A DNA stretch of 64,000 nucleotides. Origin: Pyrobaculum sp. (GTDB taxonomy: Archaea; Thermoproteota; Thermoprotei; Thermoproteales; Thermoproteaceae). Where the stretch lies: NCBI GenBank assembly GCA_038879095.1, contig JAVZUI010000003.1:9640-73639 (forward strand). The letters run 5' to 3'. Below the pieces are notes generated by a model. The model did not search any database. It was not told where the DNA came from and saw only the letters and a list, made by a program, of their open reading frames with translations. Positions 35,200 to 59,289 of the stretch are shown here, one piece after another (positions within the stretch are counted from its first letter, which is position 1; each line of letters starts with the position of its first letter). A program made the position numbers and the translations under genes.

Positions 35200-35675
35200 G
35201 TGTCGATACGTGTGGGCGTGGCCTTGTCGCCGCATATCGCAGAGATCTTAAGGAGGCTGGCAGGCGATAAAGATGTGGAGATGTTTCTGCTGGATGTATT
35301 GGCGCCTCGTTTAGACCTGCGCGAAAGCGTAGAGGCGTATTTAAAACTCCACGAGAAGCCCCTGGCGGAGGCTGAGGAGCTCTACTCCAGGGGCGACCTC
35401 CTACAGGCGGGGGAGAGTACTGGGGCGCCGCCGCCTTGCTCAACGCGATCGCCGAGAAGAGAGGCGTTCCCCACCACAGCCACAGAGACTACGACCTATT
35501 GATAAATAGGCTGTTTAAGGAGGCGCGCGAAAAAGAGATAGTCGTCTGGTTCAGAATGGCGGAGGGCCTACACGCCAACTTCTACCACAACTTCATGGAC
35601 AGAGAGGAGTTCGAGCTGCACAGGGAGGCGGTCTTGAACCTAGTCAAGAGGCTGAGAGGATTGGCGGCGTATTAA
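35200..35675 (+). pseudogene. PaREP1-family protein with a 1-nt frameshift
   Basis: Frame 1 reads '...LYSRGDLLQAGE', then frame 3 reads 'YWGAAALLNAIAEKRGVPHHSHRDY...LHANFYHNF'. The junction 'GAGAGTAC' (about 35413-35420) looks like GAG-AAG-TAC minus one A. Confidence 0.6.
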
Positions 35676-44115: not shown

Positions 44116-44143
44116 GTCCTCACCACGAACTATATTTTAAAGC

Positions 44144-44158
44144 ATTAACATTGTTAAT
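44144..44158. promoter_or_regulatory. Palindromic operator ATTAACATTGTTAAT (TTAAC-N3-GTTAA) abutting the ZIP transporter TATA box
   Basis: Perfect 15-bp palindrome. On the gene strand it is followed by GC and TTTAAAATA about 25 nt before the ZIP ATG. Confidence 0.55.
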
Positions 44159-44185
44159 ACTTTCTTCTAGAATTAAAAATAAATT

Positions 44186-44533
44186 CTACTTTGCAAACGT
44201 TGTTATTAGTAAATCAGTTTGTGCCTTTAACTCCCTAGCTGGCAACTTAGACGTGTTACATAGTGCCAATGCTTTTCTGAAACTTTTTGATATGAAATAT
44301 ACCGCGCCGTAACCCGTCCCCGCTTTTTCTACCATGTAGTGTTTTTCTAATACCGCTAGGTGGTACCTCACAGTTTTATAATCTAGCTTTAACTCTTGGG
44401 CGAGCTGATGTGCGTTCTTAGGCATCTGGCGTAGGGACTTTACAATTTTTAAACGAGTTTCCCCGCCTCGTGAAGCCACAAAAAGTAAAATTATTAACTT
44501 CCGGACATGTACAACGTGGGGAGCGTGAGTCAT
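44186..44533 (-). CDS. ArsR-like winged-helix transcriptional regulator
   Basis: 'RLKIVKSLRQMPKNAHQLAQELKLDYKTVRYHLAVLEKHYMVEK'. It lies directly upstream of the ZIP transporter on the same strand. Confidence 0.7.
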   Translation of the reverse strand: MTHAPHVVHVRKLIILLFVASRGGETRLKIVKSLRQMPKNAHQLAQELKLDYKTVRYHLAVLEKHYMVEKAGTGYGAVYFISKSFRKALALCNTSKLPARELKAQTDLLITTFAK

Positions 44534-44698
44534 AACTTAGTAATACCAGCTCTGCGCGTCGACTCCCCGTTCATAGGGCAAGGCGGCACTTGGGAGAGCT
44601 CACCTGTCGAAATTGCTCTAGAGCCAGGCAGATATGAATTTTATTGTAGGCCGCATAGAGGCTTGGTCATGGTGGGCGTTTTGACTGTAGAGCCGTGA
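44507..44698 (+). CDS. Mini cupredoxin-like ORF (possible 5'-truncated blue-copper protein remnant)
   Basis: 'SHNLVI' and 'YEFYCRPHRGLVMVG' (H ... CxxHxxxxM type-1 Cu ligand pattern). Only 63 codons are open, and the start overlaps the ArsR gene start. Confidence 0.35.
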   Translation: MYNVGSVSHNLVIPALRVDSPFIGQGGTWESSPVEIALEPGRYEFYCRPHRGLVMVGVLTVEP

Positions 44699-44705
44699 CT
44701 GAAAA

Positions 44706-44936
44706 CTAATCTCTTGTTCTCCTTTTCTTTAACAATTCTAAATATATTGACCGGATTTTGGAGTCCTCCAAGGCGGCCCAAATCGTCTGGTACGCCATGT
44801 TTATAAACTCCACGTAGCTCTGCCAGTACCTCTCGTCGTTGGACGCCGCCAACTCTGCGTACTTCTCCACGGCGGCTAGGTTTGCCCTTCTGTTTCTTCT
44901 CCGCTCTTCATCGATACCCCAAATGTCCTCAGCCAT
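44706..44936 (-). CDS. Hypothetical small protein
   Basis: 76-aa charged helical ORF. It may be a separate gene or the tail of the disrupted upstream gene. Confidence 0.3.
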   Translation of the reverse strand: MAEDIWGIDEERRRNRRANLAAVEKYAELAASNDERYWQSYVEFINMAYQTIWAALEDSKIRSIYLELLKKRRTRD

Positions 44937-45431
44937 GTCTCTAACTCCTCCTCTTTTATATAACTCTTAAGCGCTTTGTATAAGAAGTGGGCGTCTTCTA
45001 CGTCTTTGTCGCCTTCCAGCTTTAGCTTATATGCAATTTGTAGCTCTATCGGCGACACGTACACAATTCTGTCGCCCACTTTGACAGGTATTCTGTTTTC
45101 TAAGGCGTAGCGCTGTGGGTATGAACGCGGCGGCTTTAGCTCAAGGCAACAACCGCGGCGGCTTGAAGAACCTTATCGACGCCACGGCGTACTCCTCAGC
45201 AACAGCCTCCCTAGACGTAAGAAGCTCGTAGCCGCACTCCACGCACCTCTGGTACACCTTCAAGCCGTCTGCCTCTCCCACAATCACGTCGATGTCGTCT
45301 GTGGTCCTGGGCCTGCCGAACAGTATCGCTACGTACCCGGAGACGATGACGTATTTAAACACTGATATGCAGTCAACAAACTCTAAGACAAGTTTGTCAA
45401 GCTCGGTGAGGGGCCTGTTGACTACAATCAC
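44876..45431 (-). pseudogene. Nucleotidyltransferase-domain protein interrupted by a 28-nt insertion
   Basis: The N-terminal part has 'VIVSGYVAILFGRPRTTDDIDVIV'. The reading stops after 'FFKPPRLLP*'. Removing 28 nt bounded by an 11-nt direct repeat restores the frame into 'FKPPRSYPQRYALENRIPVKVGDRIVYVSPIELQIAYKL'. Confidence 0.55.
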
Positions 45432-45451
45432 GTCGTATTAAGCCCCCTCGT

Positions 45452-46576
45452 TTAAATCCTTATGTACGGTGCGGCGGCAACGCTTGAAGGAGTCTTGTGC
45501 CGGCTTCTCATTACGAGGCGGGGGAAGTCTCTCCCGTATATCAATTGTAACGCCCTCTGGGCGACCTCTTTTGCTTTGTTTACGTCCTCTGCCACTATGT
45601 TGACGTGGCCCATCTTCCTCCTAGGCCGGGCCTCCCTCTTGCGGTACCAGTAGACCTTGCCCAGCCTCTCCAGCTCGGCGAGGGGAAGCTCCTCGAAGCC
45701 CCTTCCTAATATGTTCACCATGGCCGTTGGCTTCACGGCGCTGGGCTTGCGGATCGGCAAGCCGGCAACTGCCCTCAAGTGGTTCTCAAACTGGCTGGCG
45801 TCTGTCTCTAGGGTCCAGTGCCCGGTGTTGTGGACCCTGGGCGCGATCTCGTTGGCCAAGATCCTGCCGTCTCTCGCCTCGAAGAACTCCACGGCGAGGA
45901 CCCCCACGTAATTCCACCTCTCCAACACCTTGTAGACGTATTCGTAGGCCTCCGGCGGCGCGTGGGCGGGGGCGTAGTTCCACACCAAGATGCCGTCGAC
46001 ATAGAAGTTCTCAGCAGGCGGGTAGAAGACGACGTCGCCGTCTTCGCCCCTAGCCGCGACGAGGGAGAACTCCCTTTTTATGTCGACGTACTCCTCCACC
46101 AAGAGCGGACCCTCCAGCCCCCTAATCGCCTCAGCCTCCCAGGGGTAGTAATACTGCCCCTTCCCATCGTAGCCGCCAGCCGGCACCTTCACCACGGCCC
46201 TACCCATCTTCTCGGCGATTTGCAACGCTTGTGCGCCGTCTTTAGCCACGGTCCACGGAATAGTGGGTATGCCCAGCGACTGGAAGAACTGCCTCTCCTC
46301 TATTCTGCCCTTCTTCACCTTGAGGTAGGGCAGGGCTGGGCGGAGCTTGCCTCTCCTCTCGGCGTACTCAGCCACTGAGATGTCTACGTTTTCAAATTCG
46401 TAAGTCACTGCGTCGCTCTTCTCCACCTCCTCGTACGGATCCCCCGCGGAAGACGCGCAGGTCTTGGCTGGGGCGTGTGGGTCTGGGTCGTACACAGACA
46501 GGGCTGTTGGCAACCTCTGCGCCTCCCAACACATCATTAAGGCCAGTTGCCCACCGCCCAACACCATAAGGCGCAT
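45452..46576 (-). CDS. purK: N5-carboxyaminoimidazole ribonucleotide synthase (ATP-grasp)
   Basis: 'VLGGGQLALMM', the ATP-grasp core 'VVKVPAGGYDGKGQY', 'VEEYVDIKREFS', 'NEIAPRVHNTGHWT' and 'KMGHVN'. Confidence 0.85.
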   Translation of the reverse strand: MRLMVLGGGQLALMMCWEAQRLPTALSVYDPDPHAPAKTCASSAGDPYEEVEKSDAVTYEFENVDISVAEYAERRGKLRPALPYLKVKKGRIEERQFFQSLGIPTIPWTVAKDGAQALQIAEKMGRAVVKVPAGGYDGKGQYYYPWEAEAIRGLEGPLLVEEYVDIKREFSLVAARGEDGDVVFYPPAENFYVDGILVWNYAPAHAPPEAYEYVYKVLERWNYVGVLAVEFFEARDGRILANEIAPRVHNTGHWTLETDASQFENHLRAVAGLPIRKPSAVKPTAMVNILGRGFEELPLAELERLGKVYWYRKREARPRRKMGHVNIVAEDVNKAKEVAQRALQLIYGRDFPRLVMRSRHKTPSSVAAAPYIRI

Positions 46577-46654
46577 GAGCGTAACAGTTCACTTAAATTT
46601 AAAACTTTACTCAAGGGACAAGTGAGGGGACGTTTTTAAGAGGCTACTTAATTG

Positions 46655-47374
46655 CTAAAACCTCCGTCGTAGGAAGTACGACGTCCCTTCTAGTATCAAC
46701 ACGAATAGGAATGTGGTTAACACAATAGTGGCCGCAGCGCCGTATTGGAGCAGGTTTATGTACTGCGCGATGTAGTACCCGACCCCGCCTGCGCCTACGA
46801 ACCCGATTATAGTGGCTGTCCTAATGTTGTACTCTAGGATGAATATTATGTTTGTTATAAACTGGCGGCGTTGTTGGAGGTATACTAAATGTGCCAGCTT
46901 CAGCCCTCTGGCGCCGATTGCCCTCATGGCGTCTACAAAGCCGCGGTCTACGTTTTCAAAAGTCTCATAGAATAGCTTAGTCAAATAGCCGACGCTGTAT
47001 ACGACAAGGGCCACTGCCCCTGCCACGACGCCTGGGCCGAACATCACGACGGTGAGCACAGCCCAGAGCAACGCCGGCACGGCCCGCATGAAGGTCGCCG
47101 CTGTGCGGACGGCCACGGCGAGGGCCTTGTGCCAGAAGCCAGCCGCCACGGCGGCGAGGGGCACTGATATTAAGACGGCAGTGGCAGTGGCAAAGACTGA
47201 GATCAACACAGTTTCATACAACGCGTAGAGGCCCACCGATACCGCCTCCGCGTCTAGAGAAATCTCTCTCCAAAACAATATGAGGTTTTGAAAAGCCTTG
47301 TGATAATCTGCTTGAAAGACGCCTAGTAAAAAGCCCAGGGCAATGGCTGTAGAGATGAGTAGCGGGATTATCAC
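46655..47374 (-). CDS. phnE: Phosphonate-type ABC transporter permease (PhnE-like)
   Basis: Six-TM permease with an EAA-like loop 'DRGFVDAMRAIGARGLKLAHLVYLQQ'. Adjacent to PhnC-like and PhnD-like genes. Confidence 0.7.
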   Translation of the reverse strand: MIIPLLISTAIALGFLLGVFQADYHKAFQNLILFWREISLDAEAVSVGLYALYETVLISVFATATAVLISVPLAAVAAGFWHKALAVAVRTAATFMRAVPALLWAVLTVVMFGPGVVAGAVALVVYSVGYLTKLFYETFENVDRGFVDAMRAIGARGLKLAHLVYLQQRRQFITNIIFILEYNIRTATIIGFVGAGGVGYYIAQYINLLQYGAAATIVLTTFLFVLILEGTSYFLRRRF

Positions 47375-47375
47375 G

Positions 47376-47990
47376 TCACCACAGCTGTATCAGCCTCCCG
47401 CCCTCCAGCTTATACCCCCTTTGGAAGTACTCCATTGCTAAATCCACGTCGTGCATCACAGCCACCACAGCCACGTCTGACAAGCTGGTCAGAGTCTTAA
47501 GTACTGAAGACGCCGTGTCTAAGTCTAAGTTTGCCACTGGCTCGTCTGCAAGTATTAAATCTGCCTTCTGCATCAACGCTCTTGCAATTGCCACGCGCTG
47601 TCTCTCGCCCCCGCTCAGGCTGGACACCTTGGCGTCGGCCAGGTGCGAAATTCCCACCGCGGAGAGGCACTTTAACGCCTCTTCTCGCCGTTGCCGTTTC
47701 CACACGCCTAAAAACAAGCCGAGGGAGTCAAGCGAGGCGTACATGACGTTTTCCAACGCAGTTGCAGTCTCTACAAGGCCCAAGTTTTGAGGAATGTACG
47801 AGACTTTCGAGAAGTTGTTCACCACCTCTCCCCTCAGCGGTTTCAACAGCCCGGCTATTATTTTCAAAAACGTAGTCTTTCCCACGCCGCTTTTCCCAAG
47901 CACAGCTACATGGTCATTTCTACCGAGTGTAAAGTCAATACCAGAGAGGAGGGACGGGCCTCCGTTGTATGAAAAGTATACAGACTTCAT
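47376..47990 (-). CDS. phnC: ABC transporter ATP-binding protein (PhnC-like)
   Basis: Walker A 'GKSGVGKTT', signature 'LSGGERQRV', Walker B 'LILADEPVANLD'. Confidence 0.8.
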   Translation of the reverse strand: MKSVYFSYNGGPSLLSGIDFTLGRNDHVAVLGKSGVGKTTFLKIIAGLLKPLRGEVVNNFSKVSYIPQNLGLVETATALENVMYASLDSLGLFLGVWKRQRREEALKCLSAVGISHLADAKVSSLSGGERQRVAIARALMQKADLILADEPVANLDLDTASSVLKTLTSLSDVAVVAVMHDVDLAMEYFQRGYKLEGGRLIQLW

Positions 47991-48028
47991 CGACAGCACG
48001 TATTACATATGATTTTGGATATATAAGC

Positions 48029-48043
48029 ATTAACAGTGTTAAA
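48029..48043. promoter_or_regulatory. Operator ATTAACAGTGTTAAA (TTAAC-N3-GTTAA) abutting the phnC-side TATA box
   Basis: Same core as 44144. On the minus strand it is followed by GC and TTATATAT about 30 nt before the phnC ATG. Confidence 0.55.
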
Positions 48044-48132
48044 GTTTCTAAGTAGAAGAAGAAACTACTTCTAAAAACCTTCTGCATAGCATCGCCGATT
48101 TAATGCCGTAAAACCTACTTCTACTTCGAAGT

Positions 48133-48147
48133 ATTAACAATGTTAAT
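48133..48147. promoter_or_regulatory. Operator ATTAACAATGTTAAT (TTAAC-N3-GTTAA) abutting the phnD-side TATA box
   Basis: Followed by GC and TTATAAAG, with the ATG at 48177. Confidence 0.55.
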
Positions 48148-48176
48148 GCTTATAAAGAGAGGACGAGGACTTTGCC

Positions 48177-49142
48177 ATGGCCTCGGCCAAGGTCGTAATT
48201 GCGGCTATAGTCGCCGTGGCGTTAATAATAGGAATTGCCGTTGTGTTCTTTAACCCACAGGCTGAGGTAGACAGGTTAGTAATTGTAGTAAACCCCGGGG
48301 TAAGCGCGAGGGTTAGCGCCGCCGAGGCTCAGGAGTTGGAGAAATTCCTAGAAGAGGAGCTTGGGGTAGACGTGGAACTGTACTACCCGCTAAGCACGGC
48401 CGCGTTGATTGAGGCGTTGAAGTTTGAACATGCACACGTGGCGCTAGGCGTAGGGACGCTGGCCGCCTCGTTAGCCATCAAAAACGCAGATGTAGAAATG
48501 GTCTTGGCTGAGTACCGCTCTGTGATTATAGACGGCAACGAGGCGGTGGCGCCTTACTACTACAGCTACTTCATCGTGCTCCGCGACTCGCCGTATACGA
48601 CGCTGGACGAGCTGAGGGGGAAAAAGGCCTGCTTCCCCTCTGAGACTTCTACCTCGGGCTTCATAATGCCTATGAAGCTACTTGTCGAAAAAGGCTATGT
48701 AAAAGCCGAGGGGGTGAGGACTCCAAGGGATCTGCCCCAGCAGTTCTTTGGAGAGGTAGTCTTCGGCGGGGGCTACGCCCAATGTTGGGAGGCTTTGAAA
48801 AAGGGGAGTGTAGACGTCACTGTAATGGCAGGCGACGTAGTTGCCGACTTGTACTGGGAGGCTATGAACAACAGCAGAGTCCTCCAGCTGAGAGACGGCT
48901 CTCTTGCAATCGCGGGGCCTAACCCCTCGCATGTGGTGTTGATTAGACGGGATCTGCCGCCGGAGTTAAAGACTAGGGTTGTAAATACTTTGTTAAAGCT
49001 TAATGAAAGGCCAGACTTAATGAAAAAATACGTATCTGCCATCTTTGTGCGGTTTGAAAAAAGAAGCACAGAGGAGCATTTGGGGCCGCTTCTAGAGGCG
49101 TTAGACGTATTGGGGCTGGCGGATTACTACCTCGGCCGCTAA
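48177..49142 (+). CDS. phnD: Phosphate/phosphite/phosphonate-type ABC substrate-binding protein (PhnD family)
   Basis: N-terminal TM anchor, plus '[39 protein letters not shown]' typical of the PhnD family. Confidence 0.7.
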
Positions 49143-49618
49143 GGGCTTGACTTAATAAACGAGGTTTTTAACACCTCGTCTCTCATCGTCTCCATGTGTT
49201 TTTTCACTTTTTCTCTCACCTCTGGGTGCTTGACGCCTAGTATCCTCGCCGCGAGGTAGGCGGCGTTGGCGGCGTTTCCTATGGCGACGGTGGCCACGGG
49301 GGTGCCTCTCGGCATTTGGACTATGGAGAGGAGGGAGTCTAGTCCGCCTAGGTGTCTCGTAGGTATTGGGACGCCTATTACGGGCAGTGGGGTTAGCGAT
49401 GCCGTCATCCCCGGCAGGTGGGCGGCGCCGCCTGCCCCTGCGATTATTACGTCGAACTTCTCCACGGCCTCTTTGGCGAATTGGTACATGAAGTCGGGGG
49501 TTCGGTGAGCGCTTACTACTCTGGCCTCGTAGGGGATGCCTAGCTGTTCTAAGACCTCTACCGCCTCTTTCATTACCTCCCAGTCGTTTATAGACCCCAT
49601 GATGACCGCCACCCGCAT
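49139..49618 (-). CDS. purE: N5-carboxyaminoimidazole ribonucleotide mutase
   Basis: '[14 protein letters not shown]', 'VVSAHRTPD' and '[14 protein letters not shown]...PVIGVP' are PurE hallmarks. Confidence 0.9.
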
Positions 49619-49689
49619 GTGTTGCCGTGCGCCGCTTCTTATAACTGCTGTTCTCAACATATCTGTTAATAACCAATATATATCCGCCG

Positions 49690-49902
49690 GTGGGCCTTGG
49701 CGTGGCCGCTGAGCTGGAGGCGCTTGTGGGGAGGAGGGCCGTGCTTGTGGTAGCGTCTTGCAACCAGCTGGCCGAGTCGGATATCAGAAAGGTGGTGGGG
49801 GTGGTCCTTTACGTGTCTAAGGACAGGATCGGGGTGAGGAGAGACGACGGGGCTGTGGAGGTGGTGGACAGAGGCTGGGTCGTAGAGGCTAGGGCTGTCT
49901 AG
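49690..49902 (+). CDS. Hypothetical small protein
   Basis: 70-aa ORF with a GTG start. No recognisable family. Confidence 0.2.
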
Positions 49903-50411
49903 CCTTTCTGAGCCTCGTAGCGCCTGACTATTGCCGCCTCGTGGGGGGCCAGTTTGTACACGTCGTATAGCTCCGCGAGTGCCTGCCCACCTTCTACGTG
50001 TACTTTGTAGAAGTTTATTTCGCCGGGGCTTTCTCTCACGGCGAAGCGGACCTCTTTGCCTCTCAACGCCTCCTCAGCCCCCTCCGCCTCGTCTAGTGCG
50101 TAGAATACGGGGGTGTGAAGGGCGGCGAACTTCTTCACCTTCTTCAAAACGGAGACCGCCCTCGCCCCGAGCCCCTCGACGTGTGGGCTCATGATGAGGA
50201 GGGCGCTGTCCACCTCTTCGCTTAGCTCTGTGGAGGACAGGGCCCTGGCCCTCGCCCCCCTTGCCCAGCTGAGCGCAGCCACTACCGAGGCCATGGCGAT
50301 GCAGCTGGGCGTGTTGTCAAACACAATTACAAATTCGCCGAGGTCTGAGACCAGCTTCTCGGCGTATATTCTGCCGAGGAGTGCCCTGTACTCCAGCTCT
50401 ACGCCGTCCAT
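49899..50411 (-). CDS. Hypothetical protein
   Basis: 170-aa ORF with protein-like composition and an AT-rich promoter upstream. No recognised motifs. Confidence 0.4.
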   Translation of the reverse strand: MDGVELEYRALLGRIYAEKLVSDLGEFVIVFDNTPSCIAMASVVAALSWARGARARALSSTELSEEVDSALLIMSPHVEGLGARAVSVLKKVKKFAALHTPVFYALDEAEGAEEALRGKEVRFAVRESPGEINFYKVHVEGGQALAELYDVYKLAPHEAAIVRRYEAQKG

Positions 50412-50480
50412 GTATGTAATTAAGCCTATATATAAGGCTTGAGGCCCTCAATACTTAAATAGATAAATCAGTTATGCCGC

Positions 50481-51584
50481 ATGGATAAGACAATTATCAG
50501 GAGGGCCAGGGAGGGCCGCGTCGACGACGAAATTAGGCTGATAGCAGAGGCGGAGGGCGTCTCCCCGGAGAAGGTTAGGGACAGAATCGCAAGGGGGCAG
50601 GTGGTATACATTAGAAACGCGGCGAGGCCGTCGGAGAAGGTGGTGGCGGTGGGGAGGGGGATGTCCACCAAGATCAACGTCAACCTGGGCACCTCCACGG
50701 AGGTGGTGGACATAGACACCAAGCTCCGCAAGGTGGACGTGGCGAACAGGTGGGGGGACACGCTCATGGATCTGAGCATAGGCGGCGACTTGGACTACAT
50801 CAGGCGGGCAATCATCTCGAGATCTAAGTTGCCAGTGGGCACCGTGTCGGTGTACCAGGCCTTTGTGGAGTCCTTCTCCGAGAGGGGTGGAGGGGCCTAC
50901 TTCTCGGTGGACGACTTGTTTAACACAGTGGAGAGGCAGTTGAAAGACGGCGTGGCCTTCATGACTATCCACGCCGCAGTCACCAAGGAGGCCGCCGTCA
51001 GGGTGTTAAAAAGCGACATGGTGACACCGGTGGTGTCCCACGGCGGTGACATGATCATCGGCTGGATGTTTCACAACGACGCGGAGAACCCCTACCTCAC
51101 GCACTGAGATTACCTCCTGGAGCTGTTCGCCCAGTACGACGCCGTGATCTCCATCGGCGATGCCCTGCGGCCGGGGGCCACTGCGGACGCCCACGACGAG
51201 TTTCACCTGGGGGAGCTGGTGGTGGCCGCCAGGCTGGCTAAGCGCGCGGTCAAGGCCGGCGTACAGGTCATGATAGAAGGGCCCCGGCCACGTGCCGCTA
51301 AACGACGTGGTTTGGACCATCAAGCTGGAGAAGAGGCTGACGGGGGCATCCCCTACTACGTGTTGGGCCCGCCGTCCACAGACGTGGCGGCGCCCTACGA
51401 CCACATCGCCTCAGCCGTGAGCGCGGCGCTGGCCTCTGCCTCAGTCTATATGCCCGGAGCGGAGCTGGGGCCGAAGATGGCGGCTTCGGCGGCTTTTGTG
51501 GTGTTACTTACCGCGTTGTCGCTTCTGCCGTCGCTTGTCAGGCTGTATAGGCTTAGGCCTGTGGAGGCCCTCCGCTACGAGTAG
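50481..51584 (+). pseudogene. thiC: Phosphomethylpyrimidine synthase ThiC, decayed (in-frame TGA, paired frameshifts, 3' truncation)
   Basis: '[11 protein letters not shown]', '[12 protein letters not shown]', 'VGTVSVYQA', 'MTIHAAV', then TGA at 51105-51107, then '[17 protein letters not shown]' and 'MIEGP'. The GHVPLN segment reads only in the +1 frame between the C-run 51282-51285 and the G-run 51342-51346. The sequence diverges after about 51440. Confidence 0.8.
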
Positions 51585-51630
51585 CAGACGCCGGTACTAA
51601 AAGTTTATAAATATATAGTTCCCTAGGCGC

Positions 51631-53853
51631 ATGTCTTCAGCAGTTAGGATAGTGGAGAAGCAACTGGACGAGATCTTGGCCATTGCGAAGAACCCGGCGC
51701 AGATCCGAAACGCCGGCACGCTGGCGCATGTGGACCACGGGAAGACCACTACGTCGGACTCTCTGCTGATGGGCGCGGGGCTTCTGTCGCCTAAGGTGGC
51801 GGGGAAGGCCCTTGCCATGGACTACGTCCCGATTGAGCAGCTGAGGCAGATGACTGTCAAGGCGGCGAACATCTCTCTGTACTTCGAGTATGGGGGGAAG
51901 CCGTATTTGATCAACTTCGTAGACACGCCGGGCCACGTGGACTTCACGGGCCACGTGACGAGGTCGCTGAGGGTTATGGACGGGGGCCTCGTGGTGGTGG
52001 ACGCGGTGGAGGGGGTGATGACTCAGACGGAGACTGTTGTGAGGCAGGCCTTGGAGGAGTACGTCAGGCCGGTCCTCTTCATCAACAAGATCGACCGCCT
52101 TATTAAAGAGCTCCGACTGTCGCCGCAGGAGATCCAGCAGAGGATTTTAAACATTGTAAAGGACTTCAACGCGCTTATTGACATGTTCGCCCCGCCGGAG
52201 TTTAAAGACAAGTGGAAGATCGACCCGGGGAAGGGGCAGATGGCCATGGGCTCGGCGCTTCACAAGTGGGGCATCACCATCCCCATGGCTCAGAAGGCTG
52301 GGATTAAGTTTAGCAACATCGTAGACGCCTACGAGAAGGGCTACGTGGATAAGCTGGCGGAGGAGTTCCCCCTGTATAAGACCATTCTGTCGATGATTAT
52401 TGAACACGTGCCGCCTCCCAACGTGGCTCAGAAGTACAGAATCCCCAGGCTGTGGCGCGGCGATTTGAACAGCGAGGTGGGCAAGGCCCTACTCGAGGCG
52501 GACCCCAACGGGCCTACTGTAATCGCAGTGAGTAAGGTGAACAAGGACCCCCACGCCGGCCTCATCGCCACCGGCCGCGTGTTCTCGGGCACCATTAGGG
52601 AGGGGGACGAGATTTACATCATTGGGAGGAAGTTGAAGAAGAAGGTGTTGCAGACGTACATCTACATGGGTCCCTCTAGGATCATCGTCCCCTACATGCC
52701 GGCGGGTAACATAGTGGCGTTGATGGGCGTGGACGAGGCGAGGGCGGGCGACACGTTGGTGGTGCCGAACTACGCCGACATACCTCCCTTCGAGAAGATG
52801 CGCTATATCTCCGAGCCTGTGGTGACCGTCGCCATTGAGCCTAAGAACCCCGCCGAGCTGGCGAGGCTGGTGGAGGCCTTGAAGGACTTGGTCATAGAGG
52901 ACCCGACCCTCGACCTCAAGATCGACCAAGAGACTGGGCAGATCCTCCTCTCCGGCGTGGGGACGCTTCACTTAGAGATAGCCACGTGGCTGCTCAAGGA
53001 GAGGACGAAGACGGAGTTCACTGTGTCTCCGCCGTTGATTAGGTTTAGAGAGACTGTGAGGGAGAGGTCGCAGGTGTGGGAGGGCAAGTCGCCTAACAAG
53101 CACAACCGCCTGTACTTCTACGTGGAGCCTCTCGACGAGACCACGGTGGAGCTGATCGCGTTGAGGGAGATCACCGAGGACCAGGACCCGAGGGAGAGGG
53201 CTAAGATTCTGCGGGACAAGGCTGGGTGGGACGCCGACGAGGCGAGAGGCGTATGGGCCATCGACGACCGCTACTTCAACATAATTGTGGACAAGACCTC
53301 GGGCATCCAGTACCTAAGAGAGATTAGGGACTACATCGTCCAGGGCTTTAGGTGGGCCACCGAGGCGGGGCCTCTTGCGCAGGAGCCGTTGAGAGGCGTC
53401 AAGGTGGTGCTCGTGGACGCGGTCGTCCACGAAGACCCTGCCCACCGCGGGCCTGCGCAGATAATGCCGGCTACTAAAAACGCCATATTTGCGGCGATTT
53501 TGTCGGCGAGGCCTACCGTACTGGAGCCCTTGATGAGGCTTGACATCAAGGTGGCGCCGGACTACATAGGCGCCGTCTCGTCTGTGCTTAACAAACACAG
53601 GGGCAAGATCTTAGACATGACGCAACAGGAGTACATGGCCTTTATGAAGGCTGAGCTGCCCGTCTTGGAGTCGTTTACGATAAGCGACGAGCTCCGCGCG
53701 GCGGCTGCTGGCAAGATCTTCTGGTCTATGCAGTTCTCAAGGTGGGCCCCCGTGCCGGAGTCCATGTTACAAGACTTGGTGAAGCAGCTGAGGAAGAAGA
53801 AGGGCCTGAAGGAGGAGATACCCAAGCCCAGCGACTTCGTAGAGACGTTCTAA
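51631..53853 (+). CDS. Translation elongation factor 2 (aEF-2)
   Basis: GTPase motifs 'AHVDHGKTT', 'DTPGHVDF' and 'NKID'. 740 aa, with EF-2 domains throughout. Confidence 0.95.
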   Translation: MSSAVRIVEKQLDEILAIAKNPAQIRNAGTLAHVDHGKTTTSDSLLMGAGLLSPKVAGKALAMDYVPIEQLRQMTVKAANISLYFEYGGKPYLINFVDTPGHVDFTGHVTRSLRVMDGGLVVVDAVEGVMTQTETVVRQALEEYVRPVLFINKIDRLIKELRLSPQEIQQRILNIVKDFNALIDMFAPPEFKDKWKIDPGKGQMAMGSALHKWGITIPMAQKAGIKFSNIVDAYEKGYVDKLAEEFPLYKTILSMIIEHVPPPNVAQKYRIPRLWRGDLNSEVGKALLEADPNGPTVIAVSKVNKDPHAGLIATGRVFSGTIREGDEIYIIGRKLKKKVLQTYIYMGPSRIIVPYMPAGNIVALMGVDEARAGDTLVVPNYADIPPFEKMRYISEPVVTVAIEPKNPAELARLVEALKDLVIEDPTLDLKIDQETGQILLSGVGTLHLEIATWLLKERTKTEFTVSPPLIRFRETVRERSQVWEGKSPNKHNRLYFYVEPLDETTVELIALREITEDQDPRERAKILRDKAGWDADEARGVWAIDDRYFNIIVDKTSGIQYLREIRDYIVQGFRWATEAGPLAQEPLRGVKVVLVDAVVHEDPAHRGPAQIMPATKNAIFAAILSARPTVLEPLMRLDIKVAPDYIGAVSSVLNKHRGKILDMTQQEYMAFMKAELPVLESFTISDELRAAAAGKIFWSMQFSRWAPVPESMLQDLVKQLRKKKGLKEEIPKPSDFVETF

Positions 53854-53915
53854 TTTTTAAACCTGTTGGGAGTCTGAGGAACAATTCTTTTTAAACTTGT
53901 TGGAAATTTGGAGAA

Positions 53916-55145
53916 GTGGATGTTTTTAACCCCTGGTGGAGGGGGAGGCCGGAGGAGGACCCCCACTTGGCCAAGTGGGCTGGGCAGGAGGTGAGGTGGG
54001 TCCCAGACCTGGTCTACCAGATAGAGGTGCGGCCCTACTCTCTGCACTTCGTCTACGGGCCAAGGCAGGTGGGAAAGACTACCGCGCTTAAGCTTTTTAT
54101 CAAGCGGTTGCTAGAGGAGGGGCGGGACCCCCGTTCTATTTTTTACTACAGTTGCGACATGTTGAGCGACTACAGAGAGCTGGCCGAGGTTTTGCAGGAG
54201 GTGGCGCGGCTTAAGAAAAACTGGCGGGTAGAGTCTGCAGTTGTTGTGTTAGACGAGGTGACTTACCCCAGGGAGTGGTTTAGGGCTTTGAAACACTTCG
54301 TCGACCTGGGAGTTTTTAAAAACGACGTGATCATCGCCACGGGGTCTGTGAGCATGTTCGCCAAGAGGGAGGTGGAGACGTTCCCAGGGAGAAGAGGCGG
54401 CGGAAGAGACTACGTGTTGTACCCCCTCTCTTTTAGAAAATTTATAGAAGTGGCGGGGGCCGGCGAGGACTACGAGGCGTGGAAGACGCGTCTGGAGGAG
54501 CTCCTCGACCTCTACTTGAGATGCGGCGGCATGCCGCCCTCTGTGGTGAGCTGCCTCACTAGGGGTGCGCCGGACCTAAGCGCAGACCACCTCTTCGTCT
54601 CCTCGCTAAGCTTCGACTTGGCGAGGCTGGGCCGAAGCGAGGCGTACGCAAAGAGGCTGCTCAGAGCAATCATCGCCAAGGCGCCCTCCCCCGTATCACT
54701 AAACGCCTTGGCCAAGGAGTCGGAGTTCCCCACCCACAAGACCGTCTTCTCCTACCTCTCCCTACTAGAGAACTTATTTGTGTTAAAACAAGTGTACTGG
54801 GTTGACCCCTTCACCCTCCAGGAGGACTACAGAAAAGAGCGGAAAATCCACCTACTAGACCCCGCCATGTACCGCGCCTTTGCACAGTGGGTAGGAGCCC
54901 AGCCGCCCGGGCCCGAGGTGTTGCTAGAGGCAGTAGTGGCCATGCACCTCGCGAGGGCTTACAAAGTGGGGTATTGGAGAAATAGCAGAGAAATAGACGT
55001 CGTTGTGCCCGAGCTGGGCCTCGGCGTGGAGGTCAAGTGGGGCAAGGCGGGGAGAGGCGGGAAGGTGGGGAAAATAAAATACGTGGAACTATCCCGCGAG
55101 GATGTCGTCAAGTTCTTACTTCAGCTTAGAAACACTTCGTCATAG
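53916..55145 (+). CDS. AAA+ ATPase of the COG1373 type (AAA_14 plus DUF4143-like C-terminus)
   Basis: 'NPWW' N-terminus, Walker A 'GPRQVGKTT', Walker B 'VVLDEV'. Confidence 0.7.
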   Translation: MDVFNPWWRGRPEEDPHLAKWAGQEVRWVPDLVYQIEVRPYSLHFVYGPRQVGKTTALKLFIKRLLEEGRDPRSIFYYSCDMLSDYRELAEVLQEVARLKKNWRVESAVVVLDEVTYPREWFRALKHFVDLGVFKNDVIIATGSVSMFAKREVETFPGRRGGGRDYVLYPLSFRKFIEVAGAGEDYEAWKTRLEELLDLYLRCGGMPPSVVSCLTRGAPDLSADHLFVSSLSFDLARLGRSEAYAKRLLRAIIAKAPSPVSLNALAKESEFPTHKTVFSYLSLLENLFVLKQVYWVDPFTLQEDYRKERKIHLLDPAMYRAFAQWVGAQPPGPEVLLEAVVAMHLARAYKVGYWRNSREIDVVVPELGLGVEVKWGKAGRGGKVGKIKYVELSREDVVKFLLQLRNTSS

Positions 55146-55169
55146 CTCTAGTCACGGCCGTCTCATCAC
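55121..55169 (-). ncRNA. Candidate C/D box sRNA
   Basis: The minus strand reads GUGAUGA (C), a 12-nt guide GACGGCCGUGAC, UAGA (D'), GCU, AUGACGA (C'), a 12-nt guide AGUGUUUCUAAG, and CUGA (D). It overlaps the 3' end of the convergent ATPase gene. Confidence 0.3.
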
Positions 55170-55215
55170 GGCTCCCACTCTTTCAATGTTTATAAAGTTA
55201 CAACACTTTTCTGCC

Positions 55216-56232
55216 ATGGCCATAAGGACTTTATTGGCGGTTATTATAATAATCGCGGCGGTGTTGGCGGCTTTTTTAGCAATCCAAGCCACTCAACAGA
55301 CGTCTTCCAAGAGGCTTGTGATAGTGGGACCCGCCGGGATAAGCGACTTGGGCCAGGCCCTGGCTAAGAAGTTTAGCGAAAAATACGGCGTCAACGCCAC
55401 GTTTGTGGCGCTGGGCGGCGCCGTGGAGATGGTAAACGAGCTTGTCAGGAATAGGGATAACCCGCCCTGGGACGTGGCCATTGGGATCCCCGAGTTTTAC
55501 TACACCGTCTTAATAGACAAAGACGTGTTGTACTGCCCCGGGCTAAAAATCGACGGGGTGCCCCAGGAGGAGTTCTGGGACCCCAAGGGCTGCGTCTACC
55601 CCCTGGACAAGTCTTACATCGGCATCGTCTATAACGCCACAGCGTTGTCGAGGCTGGGCGTCCCCCCGCCGCAGACTCTTGACGACTTGTTAAAGCCGCA
55701 GTACAAGGGGCTTGTTACATATCCCAACCCCGTCCAGTCAGGCACGGGGCTGGCCGTGTTGTCGTGGATAATGTCTATAAAAGGGGAAGAGGCGGGCTGG
55801 GCCTATTTAAAACAACTATCTGGACAAATTGCGAAGATAGGCTACCCCAGCGGCTTCACCTCGCTCCACAACGCGCTTAAGAGAGGCGAGGCGCTGATAG
55901 CCCTGTCGTGGTACAGCCACGCCATAGACCCCGGGACGCCTGACATGAAGGCCGCCACATACAGCGCGTTCCTCTACCGAGAAGGCTTGGCCGTCCTTAA
56001 AAACGCCAAGAACAGAGACTTGGCCGTGGAGTTTGTAAAATTTGCCCTAAGTAAAGAGGGGCAGGACTTGGTAGACCCATACAACTACATGCTCCCAGTG
56101 AGGCCAGACGCAGTGGTGGAAAACAACAAAGGCCTGCCGCGGCCCCAGTCCGTCGTGGTGTACAACCCCGCCCTGGGCTCAAAGGCGGACGAGTGGAGGC
56201 TGAGGTGGCAAAGAGAAATAGCCTCTGGCTAA
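55216..56232 (+). CDS. ABC transporter substrate-binding protein (family 1; Fe(III)/thiamine-type)
   Basis: N-terminal TM anchor, then an SBP_bac_1-like body ('VTYPNPVQSGTGLAVL', 'ALSWYSHA'). Confidence 0.65.
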   Translation: MAIRTLLAVIIIIAAVLAAFLAIQATQQTSSKRLVIVGPAGISDLGQALAKKFSEKYGVNATFVALGGAVEMVNELVRNRDNPPWDVAIGIPEFYYTVLIDKDVLYCPGLKIDGVPQEEFWDPKGCVYPLDKSYIGIVYNATALSRLGVPPPQTLDDLLKPQYKGLVTYPNPVQSGTGLAVLSWIMSIKGEEAGWAYLKQLSGQIAKIGYPSGFTSLHNALKRGEALIALSWYSHAIDPGTPDMKAATYSAFLYREGLAVLKNAKNRDLAVEFVKFALSKEGQDLVDPYNYMLPVRPDAVVENNKGLPRPQSVVVYNPALGSKADEWRLRWQREIASG

Positions 56233-57629
56233 TACCCGCCTTTTTCCTCCTCGCCTACGCCCTGCCCTATTTAATTTTATTAACTAGATACTGGGCGCCC
56301 CCGGCGCCTGACCCCTACGTCTTCTGGGTCTTGGCCTACTCGCTTGCGCAAGCCGCGGCCTCGGCGGCGCTTTCCTTGGCCGTAGGCGTCTTGCTAGGCC
56401 CCGCCTTTTTAAAAACGCCCTGGGTTAAGCCGATTGTGGTAATCCCCTTCTTCGCCCCGGCCCTCTCCACAGTGGATGCCCTCGTGAGGTTACACGGAGA
56501 CGTGATGTACGGCCCACTGGGCATTGTAATAGCCCACACGGCGTATTACGCCCCCTACGTCGCCTTGTTAGTAGAATCAAACCTACGCTCCATACCCGCC
56601 GACTTGTTAGACGCATTGGAGATATACGCCAGGAGGAGGGCGACGAGGCTGAGGATAATGATTTGGGAGCTGAGGCCGTCGCTTCTATACGCCTTCTACA
56701 CAGTTTTTGTGTTCAGCTTCTTAAGCTTCACCACGCCCCTACTCCTCGGCGGCCGCTACCCAACGCTGGAGCTACTCGCCTACATATACGCCACGTCCTT
56801 CGCCTCGACTCAGCTACTATCCACTGTAGTTGTCTTAATTCTGTTGACGTCTATCCTCTTGGCAGTCCCGTTGTTAAAACTACCCACGCCGCCGCCCTCT
56901 GCGCCCACCCCCCGGCCGCCTGGCATAGGATGGCATGTCACCGCCGCCTCGCATGCCGCCGTTGCGTACTACACAGTCTTGGTCGTCTACATCTTGCAAC
57001 CCCTAACCGCCCCCAGAGGAGTCGCCGAGCTGGCGCCCTATTTGTTAAACAGCTTTGTCGTAGCCGTTGTGTCCTCCGCCGCGTCAATTGCGGCTGTGCT
57101 GGCCTTCCTAGCCGCGGACCTGGCTGGCGGCAAGGCCTCCGCGTTGGTATACGTAGTTTCTATGGCCATGTCAAAAAGTCTCTACGCCATCGGCTACTTC
57201 TACCTCGCACAGCCGCTATACGGGACTCTGCTTGCGCTAGCCGCGGCCCACGCCTTGGTGATAACTCCCTTCACCTACTCGCTGTTAAAACCAGCATTTG
57301 AGAAAATCAGACTCGACGTAAGAGAGGCGTGCTCACTCTACCTAACCCCTGGAAAATGCGTCGCCAGGATAATGACAGAAGCCTTGGGGCCCTCTGTGGT
57401 ACAGGCGTGGCTCCTCTCCCTAGCATCCTCCCTCTCGGAGACAACGCTGGCGTTTATCCTAACGGCCGGCGGCGCCACCACCCTGTCGGCACAGGCGGCG
57501 AAGTTACTGACGTCGCGGGCTCCCGACTTTATAGAGGCCGGCCACTTCTACTCGGCGGTGTTGGCAACCGTAGTTATTTTAATAATGGCCGCCTCAAGGG
57601 CGGTGAAGACTAGGCCATACTCTTTTTAA
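56193..57629 (+). CDS. ABC transporter permease with duplicated permease domains (FbpB/ThiP-like)
   Basis: About 12 TM segments and two EAA-like loops ('DLLDALEIYARRRATRL', 'DVREACSLYLTPGKCVARI'). Confidence 0.65.
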   Translation: MEAEVAKRNSLWLIPAFFLLAYALPYLILLTRYWAPPAPDPYVFWVLAYSLAQAAASAALSLAVGVLLGPAFLKTPWVKPIVVIPFFAPALSTVDALVRLHGDVMYGPLGIVIAHTAYYAPYVALLVESNLRSIPADLLDALEIYARRRATRLRIMIWELRPSLLYAFYTVFVFSFLSFTTPLLLGGRYPTLELLAYIYATSFASTQLLSTVVVLILLTSILLAVPLLKLPTPPPSAPTPRPPGIGWHVTAASHAAVAYYTVLVVYILQPLTAPRGVAELAPYLLNSFVVAVVSSAASIAAVLAFLAADLAGGKASALVYVVSMAMSKSLYAIGYFYLAQPLYGTLLALAAAHALVITPFTYSLLKPAFEKIRLDVREACSLYLTPGKCVARIMTEALGPSVVQAWLLSLASSLSETTLAFILTAGGATTLSAQAAKLLTSRAPDFIEAGHFYSAVLATVVILIMAASRAVKTRPYSF

Positions 57630-58539
57630 AACACTTCCCCTTCACCACTCTAAACCTCACCCTCGGCCCCGGGGGGCTTGTAAGCCTAAGCCTCAGAGTC
57701 CTCCCGCCGTGCCTCACAACAGCCTCGTATCGGCCCCCAGCGTACCAGTACGCCACCACCTCCCCCTCGAGGGGGCCCCCCTCCTCCACGTCCCAAGGCC
57801 TAAAAAACAAGTCGCCGCACTCCGCCTCGACGGAGTTGTAGTAGCCCAAAAACCTGGCCACCTCCACGGTTGGTGGGTCTTCGAAGACTTCCACCACCCC
57901 TCCATACGCCGCCACCTTGCCCCCCATCACCACGGCCACCTTCTCAGCTATGTAAGCCGCCTCTTCGAAGTCGTGGGTGACGTACACCACCGTCCGCCCC
58001 CTAGCCGCCTCGTAGATGTAGGGCAACACCTCGCCCCTAAGCGGCGCGTCGAGGGCAGTCAACGGCTCGTCTAAGAGCAGGACAGACGGCTCCACCACCA
58101 AGGCTCTTGCAAGAGCCACCCTCTGCTGCTGCCCTCTGCTGAGCTCCGCCGGGTACCTCTCCTCCAAGCCGCCCAGGCCCAGCCTGGCCAAGACCTCCCT
58201 CGCCCTCTCCTCGGCCTCTCTCTTGCCGACCCCACGCGCCATCAGGGGCTCCGCCACGTTTTCTAACACGGTGAGAGAGGGGAACAGGGCGGGGCTTTGA
58301 AAAACCACCCCGACCCCCCGCTCCCAGGGCTTCTTATGGGTGACGTCCACGCCGTCGATCAAAACTCTCCCGCGGTCCGGCGTCAAGAAGCCCGCCAAAA
58401 TTCTGAGGAGGGTGGACTTGCCCGCCCCCGACGGGCCGACAACCGCCACTCTCTCTCCTCTGCCGATTTTGAGGTCTACGGGGCCGAGACGAAAAGAGCC
58501 GAGTTTTTTCTCTACGCCTAGTAGAACTACCTCGCTCAC
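57610..58539 (-). CDS. ABC transporter ATP-binding protein with C-terminal TOBE-like domain
   Basis: Walker A 'GPSGAGKST', signature 'LSRGQQQRV', Walker B 'LLLDEP'. Convergent with the permease. Confidence 0.8.
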   Translation of the reverse strand: MSEVVLLGVEKKLGSFRLGPVDLKIGRGERVAVVGPSGAGKSTLLRILAGFLTPDRGRVLIDGVDVTHKKPWERGVGVVFQSPALFPSLTVLENVAEPLMARGVGKREAEERAREVLARLGLGGLEERYPAELSRGQQQRVALARALVVEPSVLLLDEPLTALDAPLRGEVLPYIYEAARGRTVVYVTHDFEEAAYIAEKVAVVMGGKVAAYGGVVEVFEDPPTVEVARFLGYYNSVEAECGDLFFRPWDVEEGGPLEGEVVAYWYAGGRYEAVVRHGGRTLRLRLTSPPGPRVRFRVVKGKCFKKSMA

Positions 58540-59117
58540 CTTTTAGAGGCTTGTACTCTCAGTATCCCAGGCGCGGTTATTATGTCCTTTACCTCGTAGC
58601 CCATCTCCTCTAGTAGACACACCACAGCCCTGGCGGTGGCCTCCACGTTCTCTATGCTGTACCCCACGCCGATGGCGTCGAGAGTAAAGTCGCCGCCCTC
58701 TGCCTTAACCTCAAACCTCTTAGCCGGCACCACCCTGGTGAGATAGGGGGTGAGCTGCGCCGCCTGTTCTAAAGAGCCGAACACAGCCTTTATGTAACTG
58801 GCCAGCATCCTCCCCGCCTCGCACCAAGACTTCAACACGGCGTCTTTACTCTCTTTAAACATTTCCACGACCATCCTGTCCAGCAACCTGCCGGGAATCG
58901 GCACAGTCTCTAGCTCCGTCATTACTTTGTAAAAGAGGGCTATGTCCCTGATCTGAGTGACGCTGTAGCCCTGGCGTATTAACTCAAGGCCGATGCCTAG
59001 GATTTGGTTGGCCAACGCAAACTGGGTCATTCCCAGCTCCTCGGCTGTGGAGGCCAGTTGCTCAGCTATGTCCTTCGCCACCGCGATGTTCACCCTGTCC
59101 TTCTTCATCTGGCTCAT
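58536..59117 (-). CDS. Putative regulator with N-terminal ribbon-helix-helix-like segment
   Basis: 'KKDRVNIAVAKDIAEQLASTAEELGMTQ' is RHH-like at the N-terminus. The C-terminal domain is unknown. Divergent from feoB. Confidence 0.35.
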   Translation of the reverse strand: MSQMKKDRVNIAVAKDIAEQLASTAEELGMTQFALANQILGIGLELIRQGYSVTQIRDIALFYKVMTELETVPIPGRLLDRMVVEMFKESKDAVLKSWCEAGRMLASYIKAVFGSLEQAAQLTPYLTRVVPAKRFEVKAEGGDFTLDAIGVGYSIENVEATARAVVCLLEEMGYEVKDIITAPGILRVQASKR

Positions 59118-59274
59118 GTAATAGAAAAATAGATATACTTTTAAACATTATGTTCAATAAAAGACAAATGTATCTATCGTCCCACAGTTTTCGACCATCC
59201 TCTTGCCTAAGTACAAAATAGTTTTCGAATCCATTTCTTGTTAATTATCAAAATTAGTCTTTAAAAATTTATAT

Positions 59275-59289
59275 ATTAACATCGTTAAC
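59275..59289. promoter_or_regulatory. Operator-like ATTAACATCGTTAAC (TTAAC-N3-GTTAA) between the TATA box and the feoB start
   Basis: Core identical to the other three sites. Here it lies downstream of 'CTTTAAAAATTTATAT' and 6 nt before the GTG at 59295. Confidence 0.5.

Follow-up and report, generated by a model that had tools for sequence, protein, structure and literature searches.

In this work we describe a palindromic DNA element, TTAAC-N3-GTTAA, that lies at four transporter promoters in a 64-kb stretch of a Pyrobaculum sp. genome (the window in what follows). The promoters are those of a gene for a ZIP-family divalent-metal transporter, of the divergent phnC-phnE and phnD-like genes of a PhnCDE-type ATP-binding cassette (ABC) importer, and of the ferrous-iron transporter gene feoB. 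The element is a genuine, selected cis-regulatory site, because it is found above chance frequency and is conserved at orthologous promoters. We propose, with moderate confidence, that one symmetric, dimeric, trans-encoded and metal-responsive (probably iron-responsive) repressor co-represses the ZIP transporter, FeoB and the PhnCDE-type importer by occluding their core promoters. Few transcription-factor regulons have been defined in Crenarchaeota, and a precise, conserved operator with a defined promoter geometry is an easy handle on the regulator.

The four operators and the TATA boxes beside them are the following.

44144 to 44158, no strand: operator 1, class I, ATTAACATTGTTAAT; its centre lies 36 nt before the ZIP start codon.
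44134 to 44141, minus strand: ZIP TATA box, TTTAAAAT on the gene strand, with GC between TATA box and palindrome.
48029 to 48043, no strand: operator 2, class I, TTTAACACTGTTAAT on the gene strand; serves phnC-phnE.
48019 to 48026, minus strand: phnC TATA box, TTATATAT on the gene strand.
48133 to 48147, no strand: operator 3, class I, ATTAACAATGTTAAT; serves the phnD-like binding-protein gene.
48150 to 48157, plus strand: TATA box of the phnD-like promoter, TTATAAAG.
59275 to 59289, no strand: operator 4, class II, ATTAACATCGTTAAC; its centre lies 13 nt before the feoB start and it overlaps the 3′ end of the TATA box.
59268 to 59275, plus strand: feoB TATA box, TTTATATA, 27 nt before the GTG.

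The exact pattern is present at 44145-44157, 48030-48042, 48134-48146 and 59276-59288, four copies where dinucleotide-preserving shuffles of the window give an expectation of 0.04; none of 100 shuffles reached four and the maximum was one. The fuller symmetric element is ATTAACA-N-TGTTAAT (a 7-1-7 arrangement), which extends to the 19-bp palindrome GYATTAACANTGTTAATRC; written as a DNA probe the operator is GTATTAACAATGTTAATGC. A weight matrix built from the four sites scores them at 24-32 bits and the next-best window position at 11 bits, a gap of more than 13 bits, so this matrix finds no fifth site in the window. A preliminary description of this DNA, made from its letters, had reported the four palindromes and no other occurrence in the window, and both statements held when the positions and sequences were re-read and counted. 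The same description had proposed a degenerate copy at 55180-55193. We reject this as a fifth operator: it scores about 5.7 bits, which is background for the matrix, and it is not conserved at the orthologous promoter in either of the two related loci from Pyrobaculum WP30 (L021) and Pyrobaculum sp. 3827-6 (L022).

The arrangement of the promoters is as regular as the motif itself. On the gene strand, the ZIP, phnC and phnD promoters all read palindrome, GC, TATA box (TTTAAAAT, TTATATAT and TTATAAAG, respectively) and then the start codon, 26-27 nt past the first T of the TATA box. The feoB palindrome instead lies between TATA box and start codon; its first base is the last of TTTATATA, and 5 nt separate its end from the GTG start at 59295. 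Re-reading the four promoters recovered both of these layouts as they had first been described.

The genes behind these promoters are listed next.

43225 to 44115, minus strand: ZIP-family divalent-metal transporter gene, 296 amino acids, GTG start; homologues are named ZIP family or ZupT.
46655 to 47374, minus strand: phnE-like permease, Pfam BPD_transp_1.
47376 to 47999, minus strand: phnC-like ABC ATPase, Pfam ABC_tran.
48177 to 49142, plus strand: PhnD/PtxB-superfamily substrate-binding protein, 321 amino acids; Pfam Phosphonate-bd, TIGR01098 above cut-off, and PDB sequence matches.
59295 to 61001, plus strand: feoB, ferrous-iron transporter, 568 amino acids; Pfam FeoB_N, Gate and MMR_HSR1.

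The assignment of FeoB is clear from its domains (FeoB_N at 3e-32 and Gate at 4e-24 in Pfam), and Pyrobaculum orthologues are found at 48-63% identity. The ZIP protein itself has a weak Pfam Zip match (E = 0.0032, below the Pfam cut-off) and two HNxxEG motifs in its translation; the homologues that are named ZIP family or ZupT share 47-75% identity with it, and some of them carry PF02535. Its GTG start codon is supported by the conserved promoter spacing. For the ATPase and the permease the nearest NCBIfam models are PhnC and PhnE, both under their equivalog cut-offs. The window derives from a hot-spring genome of Pyrobaculum type, and proteins and DNA identical to its own are also present in the assemblies GCA_038893295.1 and GCA_038815115.1.

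The operator is kept at the orthologous ZIP, phnC/phnD and feoB promoters of about 12 other Thermoproteales genomes, and also at the ZIP promoter of Aeropyrum pernix. In total, 26 sites in about 13 genomes can be aligned, and the intergenic DNA that flanks them has diverged. A scan of a genome collection with the binding protein returned five Thermoproteaceae phnD loci at 60-71% identity, including that of P. oguniense TE7 (the P. oguniense phnD locus is L010). The motif lies directly upstream of the phnD TATA box in all five, and on the phnC side too where phnC is divergent. Counted over all phn loci, the phnD-side operator is conserved in L010-L014, L044, L082 and L100, and the phnC-side operator in L010, L011, L012, L013, L044 and L100. 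Three of these loci (L044, L082 and L100) came from a metagenome scan with the DNA pattern AACANTGTTAATGCTTWWWW. Among the matches listed for that scan, most were chance matches in AT-rich contigs, the relevant ones were these three, all phnCDE loci, and there was no new regulon member or regulator. A metagenome scan with the FeoB protein gave no matches.

At feoB, the promoters of P. islandicum (L019), P. oguniense (L020), Pyrobaculum WP30 and Pyrobaculum sp. 3827-6 have AACAnTGTTAAT adjoining the TATA box on its downstream side, with 4-6 nt left before the start codon. The ZIP promoters come from a 75%-identical relative (L023), from three loci whose ZIP protein is labelled MULTISPECIES Pyrobaculum (L024-26), from Thermoproteus uzoniensis (L028) and from A. 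pernix (L027). In each of them two to four bases separate the motif from the TATA box downstream of it, and the ZIP orthologues keep the same 26-27 nt between TATA start and start codon. In A. pernix K1 the site (L027 3942-3956, in the locus BA000002 145164-153958) matches TTAAC-N3-GTTAA exactly; it reads TTTAACGTTGTTAAA, precedes TAG and TTTATCTA, and stands 45 nt before the ZIP start codon. As A. pernix belongs to a different order from the Thermoproteales, this sequence match suggests that the regulator extends beyond them. A palindrome-binding factor is probably conserved across Pyrobaculum and Thermoproteus, and probably more widely in Crenarchaeota.

As a control we trained the matrix on the four window sites only and scanned 232 kb of DNA from 12 independent orthologous loci at a threshold of at least 12 bits. 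This gave 29 matches, compared with 5.9 in composition-preserving shuffles; 18 of the 29 are no more than 120 nt from a ZIP, phn or feoB start, and at the target promoter all loci reach at least 17 bits. Most ZIP, phnC and phnD promoters have the palindrome centre 36-37 nt before the start (the automatic choice of start codon gave other values at six), and all feoB promoters, the class II sites, have it 12-14 nt before. Phylogenetic footprinting and a test for enrichment over AT-rich chance had both been suggested in the preliminary description. The first places the motif at the same position in orthologous ZIP, phnC/phnD and feoB promoters, and the second separates it from the shuffled background.

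Motif-like sequences of 12-19 bits are also found within the feoB coding sequence (window 59744-59758, L019 10453-10467, and 10765-10779 in both L021 and L022). Their codon position is common to the window and P. islandicum, and WP30 and sp. 3827-6 share a different one. Further copies lie early in the ZIP gene (L024 10069, L028 10042 and window 43961). These copies inside feoB and ZIP may be by-products of the coding sequence or auxiliary operators.

How might a single factor act at these promoters? In its DNA-binding state, most likely metal-loaded under iron repletion, the factor would sit directly against the TATA box. At ZIP, phnC and phnD it would cover the position of the transcription factor B recognition element (BRE), 36-37 nt before the start of these apparently leaderless genes, and so compete with TFB and TBP; we propose this overlap because the palindrome ends 2-4 bp from the TATA box. 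At feoB it would cover the stretch from TATA box to start, centred 12-14 nt before the start codon, and would block the recruitment of RNA polymerase. The archaeal regulators MDR1, Phr and LrpA repress from that position by blocking polymerase recruitment. Two dimers may bind cooperatively through weaker operator copies 64-104 bp away, and the ZIP, FeoB and PhnCDE-type systems would be shut off together. Iron is the likely signal because ZIP and FeoB indicate divalent metals, FeoB iron in particular, and because the PhnD-like protein also supports iron. The two site positions allow a direct comparison of one archaeal factor acting on either side of the TATA box.

The preliminary description had read the sites as a regulon for metal or nutrient uptake under one dimeric regulator, and had proposed two candidates for that regulator. 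The regulon stands, in that orthologous transporter promoters share the operator; neither of the proposed regulators is supported, for reasons given below. Its further suggestion that the PhnCDE-like system is co-regulated with metal uptake is borne out, as footprinting locates the motif identically in the orthologous promoters of each of the three gene classes.

The protein encoded by the phnD-like gene deserves closer description. It scores 103 bits against the PhnD equivalog model TIGR03431, for which the cut-off is 261, and passes only the broad subfamily model TIGR01098 (123.9 against 112). Its clade is small, with 17 representative clusters at an E-value of at most 1e-30, and all members compared, down to 30% identity, share Y128, S158, S160, Y200 and H252; the protein keeps the S158-T159-S160 anion motif. 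In profile alignments Y200 falls opposite PhnD position 157 (Ala in the aligned 3s4u chain, His in the wild type) and opposite a His of PtxB. H252 falls opposite a PhnD Asp, presumably Asp205, and opposite a Tyr of PtxB. Two substrate-contact positions of PhnD and PtxB are thus occupied by Y200 and H252, with the PhnD-type residues His157 and Asp205 replaced, and the Ser-Thr-Ser oxyanion motif and a conserved Tyr (Y93 in PhnD, Y128 here) are kept.

Y128, Y200 and H252 align in MAFFT with the transferrin iron ligands Y95, Y188 and H249, with a human transferrin sequence entered by hand. Transferrins are also significant HMMER sequence matches over the Y95 region. The binding protein can further be aligned over its full length (E = 7e-25) with a transferrin-like protein from a prokaryote, in which SCHTG and PSH motifs are present. 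H252 aligns with its PSH motif, and BLAST puts Y200 three residues off. From these alignments the binding protein probably handles ferric iron rather than phosphonate. It is likely that automatic annotation has mislabelled the 'phosphonate' binding proteins of this small clade, and that they have a metal function, probably with ferric iron. According to a review (PMC7676907, which cites McQuaid 2018), the presumed ancestors of transferrins and phytotransferrins are periplasmic proteins that bind phosphonate, and the clade bears on this proposed origin.

Two distant relatives of the binding protein, the one-lobed P0213 (331 amino acids) and the two-lobed P0282 (710 amino acids), are prokaryotic transferrin-like proteins with the motifs SCHTG, Y..GAL(R/K)CL..G.GD(V/I)A and P(S/G)HP. 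They are very acidic and haloarchaeon-like, with a lipobox-like N-terminus, and judging by these features may be bona fide prokaryotic transferrins.

Several points weigh against a metal-responsive repressor. We infer both the repression and the metal signal from site position and gene function, and the archaeal activators Ptr2 and TFB-RF1 also bind about 36 nt upstream of the start. Pfam scans of roughly 60 open reading frames in the window and of the neighbours in the fetched loci did not turn up a DtxR, Fur or other regulator domain. The evidence from Aeropyrum is a single locus. As for ferric iron, the binding protein has Gly at the position of transferrin Asp63, and the carbonate-binding Thr120/Arg124 are replaced by the PhnD-type Ser-Thr-Ser. 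Its C-terminal half alone has no significant transferrin match, and the nearest solved proteins by profile are PtxB and PhnD rather than transferrins.

Could one factor instead have opposite effects, activating ZIP and phnCDE from upstream of the BRE and TATA box and repressing feoB from downstream? We consider this, the main alternative, possible though rather unlikely. It would amount to a reciprocal switch in which, for example, redox or metal state decides between uptake of ferrous iron through FeoB and of ferric iron through the ABC system. The two conserved positions are sharply different (about 36-37 nt and about 13 nt before the start), and it is well established that TrmBL1, SurR, Ptr2 and TFB-RF1 usually activate from upstream of the BRE and TATA box and repress from downstream. 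TAGAA/TTCTA elements further upstream, described below, could also belong to an activating assembly. However, a palindrome 2-4 bp from the TATA box leaves no free BRE, which favours occlusion, and opposite control of uptake systems for the same class of nutrient would be less economical.

A bolder and equally tentative proposal is that a novel Crenarchaeota-wide factor, possibly belonging to neither the DtxR nor the Fur family, controls iron acquisition, and that the binding protein of its most constant target, the PhnD-superfamily importer, binds Fe(III) through a transferrin-like Tyr/Tyr/His set together with a phosphonate-type anion pocket. The importer may also be switched reciprocally with FeoB. 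If this were true, the binding protein would be a living prokaryotic intermediate on the way from phosphonate-binding proteins to transferrins.

The signal might also be something other than a metal: phosphorus, in view of phnCDE, or thiamine and purine metabolism, in view of the neighbouring thiC, purE, purK and tenA. The most constant target, always with two sites, is indeed the PhnCDE-type transporter, and thiC, purE and purK lie around it in the window. We nevertheless think such a signal improbable. ZIP and FeoB are cation transporters, and the binding protein has no PhnD- or PtxB-type residues at the two substrate positions discussed above. The thiamine and purine link in particular is rejected, as thiC, purE and purK are without the motif and their synteny with phnCDE is not conserved; in the five Thermoproteaceae loci, ZIP, ArsR, purK, purE and thiC are not syntenic with phnD.

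If a metal-responsive repressor is the binder, which gene encodes it? The window offers two local candidates, both of them named in the preliminary description.

44186 to 44533, minus strand: ArsR-like winged-helix gene, Pfam PF01022 HTH_5, E = 1.7e-10.
58536 to 59117, minus strand: gene for a protein of 193 amino acids, divergent from feoB, with a ribbon-helix-helix (RHH)-like N-terminus; AlphaFold model with a predicted local distance difference test (pLDDT) value of 64; orthologue only in L021.

The ArsR-like gene, directly upstream of ZIP, had seemed the obvious choice. Its product carries the winged-helix HTH_5 domain and a His-rich N-terminus (H3, H6 and H9), the gene is 28 bp from operator 1 (44158 to 44186), and ArsR/SmtB operators in general contain AACA/TGTT-type inverted repeats. 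Nevertheless, we find it very unlikely that this protein binds the palindrome. It has 14 weak homologues among 5.8 billion clustered proteins, with non-self identities of about 43-53% and none from a named genome. No tblastn match was obtained in any of 11 orthologous loci, and the gene is absent beside ZIP in L023, L024-26, L027 and L028, where the operator persists. A motif that has persisted from Pyrobaculum to Aeropyrum calls for a binder of comparable conservation, and the gene does not qualify. Its score against HTH_metalloreg (NF033788) is 34.6 bits, below the cut-off of 55, and the translation has a single Cys and neither the alpha-3 CxC nor the alpha-5 D/H-x-H...H-x-x-E metal site. 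Its own promoter is without the motif, and the normal role of ArsR-type sensors is to derepress efflux genes, not to repress genes for uptake.

The 193-amino-acid protein, with its RHH-like N-terminus and possible ligand-binding domain, has a similarly slight chance of being the regulator. The N-terminal strand-helix-helix pattern looks RHH-like, the remainder of the model weakly resembles H-NOX/Bet3 sensor folds (V4R-type; TRAPP/Bet3), and the gene is kept beside feoB in Pyrobaculum WP30 at 72% identity. Going by the predicted model, a V4R-type small-molecule sensor fused to a DNA-binding domain would fit. Against this, the protein has no Pfam, NCBIfam or PDB sequence match, and the model is of low confidence, with the pLDDT value of 64 given above and template modelling scores of about 0.4 or lower. 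Beside feoB the gene is restricted to the window and WP30, and is absent in P. islandicum (L019), P. oguniense (L020) and sp. 3827-6 (L022), where the operator is kept. Its own promoter (around 59125-59150) is more than 120 bp from the palindrome and without a copy of the motif, and co-transcription with the ATPase of a different ABC system suggests a local role. PDB sequence searches with three candidate proteins gave no matches. The repressor that we propose is presumably encoded outside the window.

Finally, the idea that the motif is chance in AT-rich promoters or a BRE-like core element rather than a regulator site, which could appeal to the AT-rich promoter DNA around all sites and to the general resemblance of the promoter-proximal half GTTAAT to the crenarchaeal BRE consensus RNWAAW, has a negligible probability and is effectively refuted by the shuffles (0.04 sites expected), by a matrix control in which clustering at orthologous target promoters is far beyond that of shuffled sequence, and by the palindromic form of the element and its place downstream of the feoB TATA box in five species, where a BRE cannot lie.

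Operators are found in pairs. Weaker second copies are found at centre-to-centre distances of 64, 64, 65, 67, 83, 83, 85, 87 and 104 bp from the main sites, spacings that are close to 6, 8 and 10 helical turns. Operator pairs are present in the window (48029/48133) and in L010, L012, L013, L044, L082, L100 and L020; the weaker member of the pair in L100 and in L020 does not lie at a promoter. On a post hoc reading, the paired operators suggest cooperative binding of two dimers, or looping.

A second conserved sequence element accompanies the operators in two places in the window, just upstream of them.

48044 to 48132, no strand: phnC/phnD inter-operator spacer, with TAGAA/TTCTA-type repeats at 48050-48074 and 48115-48132.
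44159 to 44190, no strand: ZIP promoter upstream element, TAGAATT-N7-AATTCTA, directly adjoining operator 1.

TAGAA/TTCTA words are also found upstream of the palindromes in L010, L011, L012, L014, L044, L082 and L100, where they form short inverted repeats such as AGAAC-N3-TTTCT, GAAT-N3-ATTC and TAGAATT-N7-AATTCTA. Their frequency is about 4 times that expected from AT-rich background, with 26 of them in 24 segments of 45 nt. The element could be the site of a second regulator or an extension of the operator.

The proposed regulon has several parallels among known systems. Leyn and Rodionov reportedly predicted, in 2015, palindromic DtxR-family operators at archaeal feoAB and ZIP genes. The archaeal DtxR-family regulons (FetR, MntR and ZntR) resemble the present one in their palindromic operators at FeoB and ZIP promoters, in conservation among relatives and in a presumed metal-dependent repression. 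They differ in scope: here one motif spans FeoB, ZIP and a PhnCDE-type system, and the latter is not known to be among DtxR-regulon targets. No DtxR-family gene (PF01325 or PF02742) was found in the scanned window open reading frames or the fetched loci. Cozen et al. are said to have described, in 2009, Fur-like repressive iron responses in P. aerophilum. This species is of the same genus, and a coordinated iron repression of uptake genes is what the operator would produce; that response is expression-based, whereas ours is known from the cis-element alone. The regulon may already have been predicted by comparative genomics, in which case the value of our results would be confirmation in a new lineage and the link to the binding protein. 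The operator motif strings had no match in the relevant open-access papers.

Archaeoglobus fulgidus MDR1, and Phr and LrpA, occupy the classical position between TATA box and start, as the operator does at feoB; the ZIP and phn sites, in contrast, lie on the opposite flank of the TATA box, where the BRE would be. The zinc operator of streptococcal AdcR (MarR family), reportedly TTAACNRGTTAA, has nearly the same half-sites, TTAAC and GTTAA, and also controls metal uptake. However, its spacer is 2 nt rather than 3 nt, AdcR is bacterial and no MarR-family gene was seen here, so we take the resemblance as a lead only. Among binding proteins, PhnD, PtxB, HtxB, AioX and ArrX belong to the same oxyanion-binding superfamily (PF12974, TIGR01098), and the Ser-Thr-Ser motif and the first Tyr are present in the window protein as well; PhnD His157 and Asp205 (His and Tyr in PtxB) are replaced in it. 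Compared with transferrins, it has Tyr and His at the positions that MAFFT aligns with Y188 and H249, and lacks Asp63 and the carbonate-binding Thr/Arg.

The window holds some further features of note. A GC-rich sequence, AGTCACGGCCGTnTCATCAC, with the palindrome CACGGCCGTG, is found at 55150-55169 and around 5845 in L021 and 6265 in L022. It is conserved in these three species, about 45-65 nt before the start of the gene for a second ABC binding protein (sfuA/thiB/PhnS-like); the window has an AAA_14 gene inserted on its upstream side. The CACGGCCGTG palindrome may be an operator for this second ABC transporter, for example for the 193-amino-acid RHH-like protein.

An open reading frame of 170 amino acids (window 49899-50411, minus strand; L010 7630-8133; L023 9197-9709; about 70% identity) lies near regulon genes in three arrangements, beside purE and phnD in the window, after phnE in P. 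oguniense, and directly upstream of ZIP in L023. The protein has no Pfam, NCBIfam or PDB match, and its predicted structure is unusable (pLDDT 41). The adjacent thiC (50481-51584) is split into open reading frames of 208 and 146 amino acids, with about 190 bp missing relative to the intact 430-amino-acid gene in L001 and L002, and is either a pseudogene or an assembly defect. A 2-kb patch, 49431-51434, which covers the purE 3′ end, the 170-amino-acid gene and the thiC 5′ end, is 89% identical to GCA_038893295.1 (L002) and 98% identical to L001, while its flanks are 99.7-100% identical to L002. This patch looks like inter-strain recombination or a chimeric assembly.

No Rfam families or tRNA genes were found in the 64-kb window. 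Small genes of mobile or defence type lie at 1684-2791, 4565-4972, 13370-13867, 26707-27162 and 35436-35675. The set comprises a HEPN and nucleotidyltransferase pair, a PIN-domain protein and several PaREP1-family genes, and is typical of Pyrobaculum genomes.

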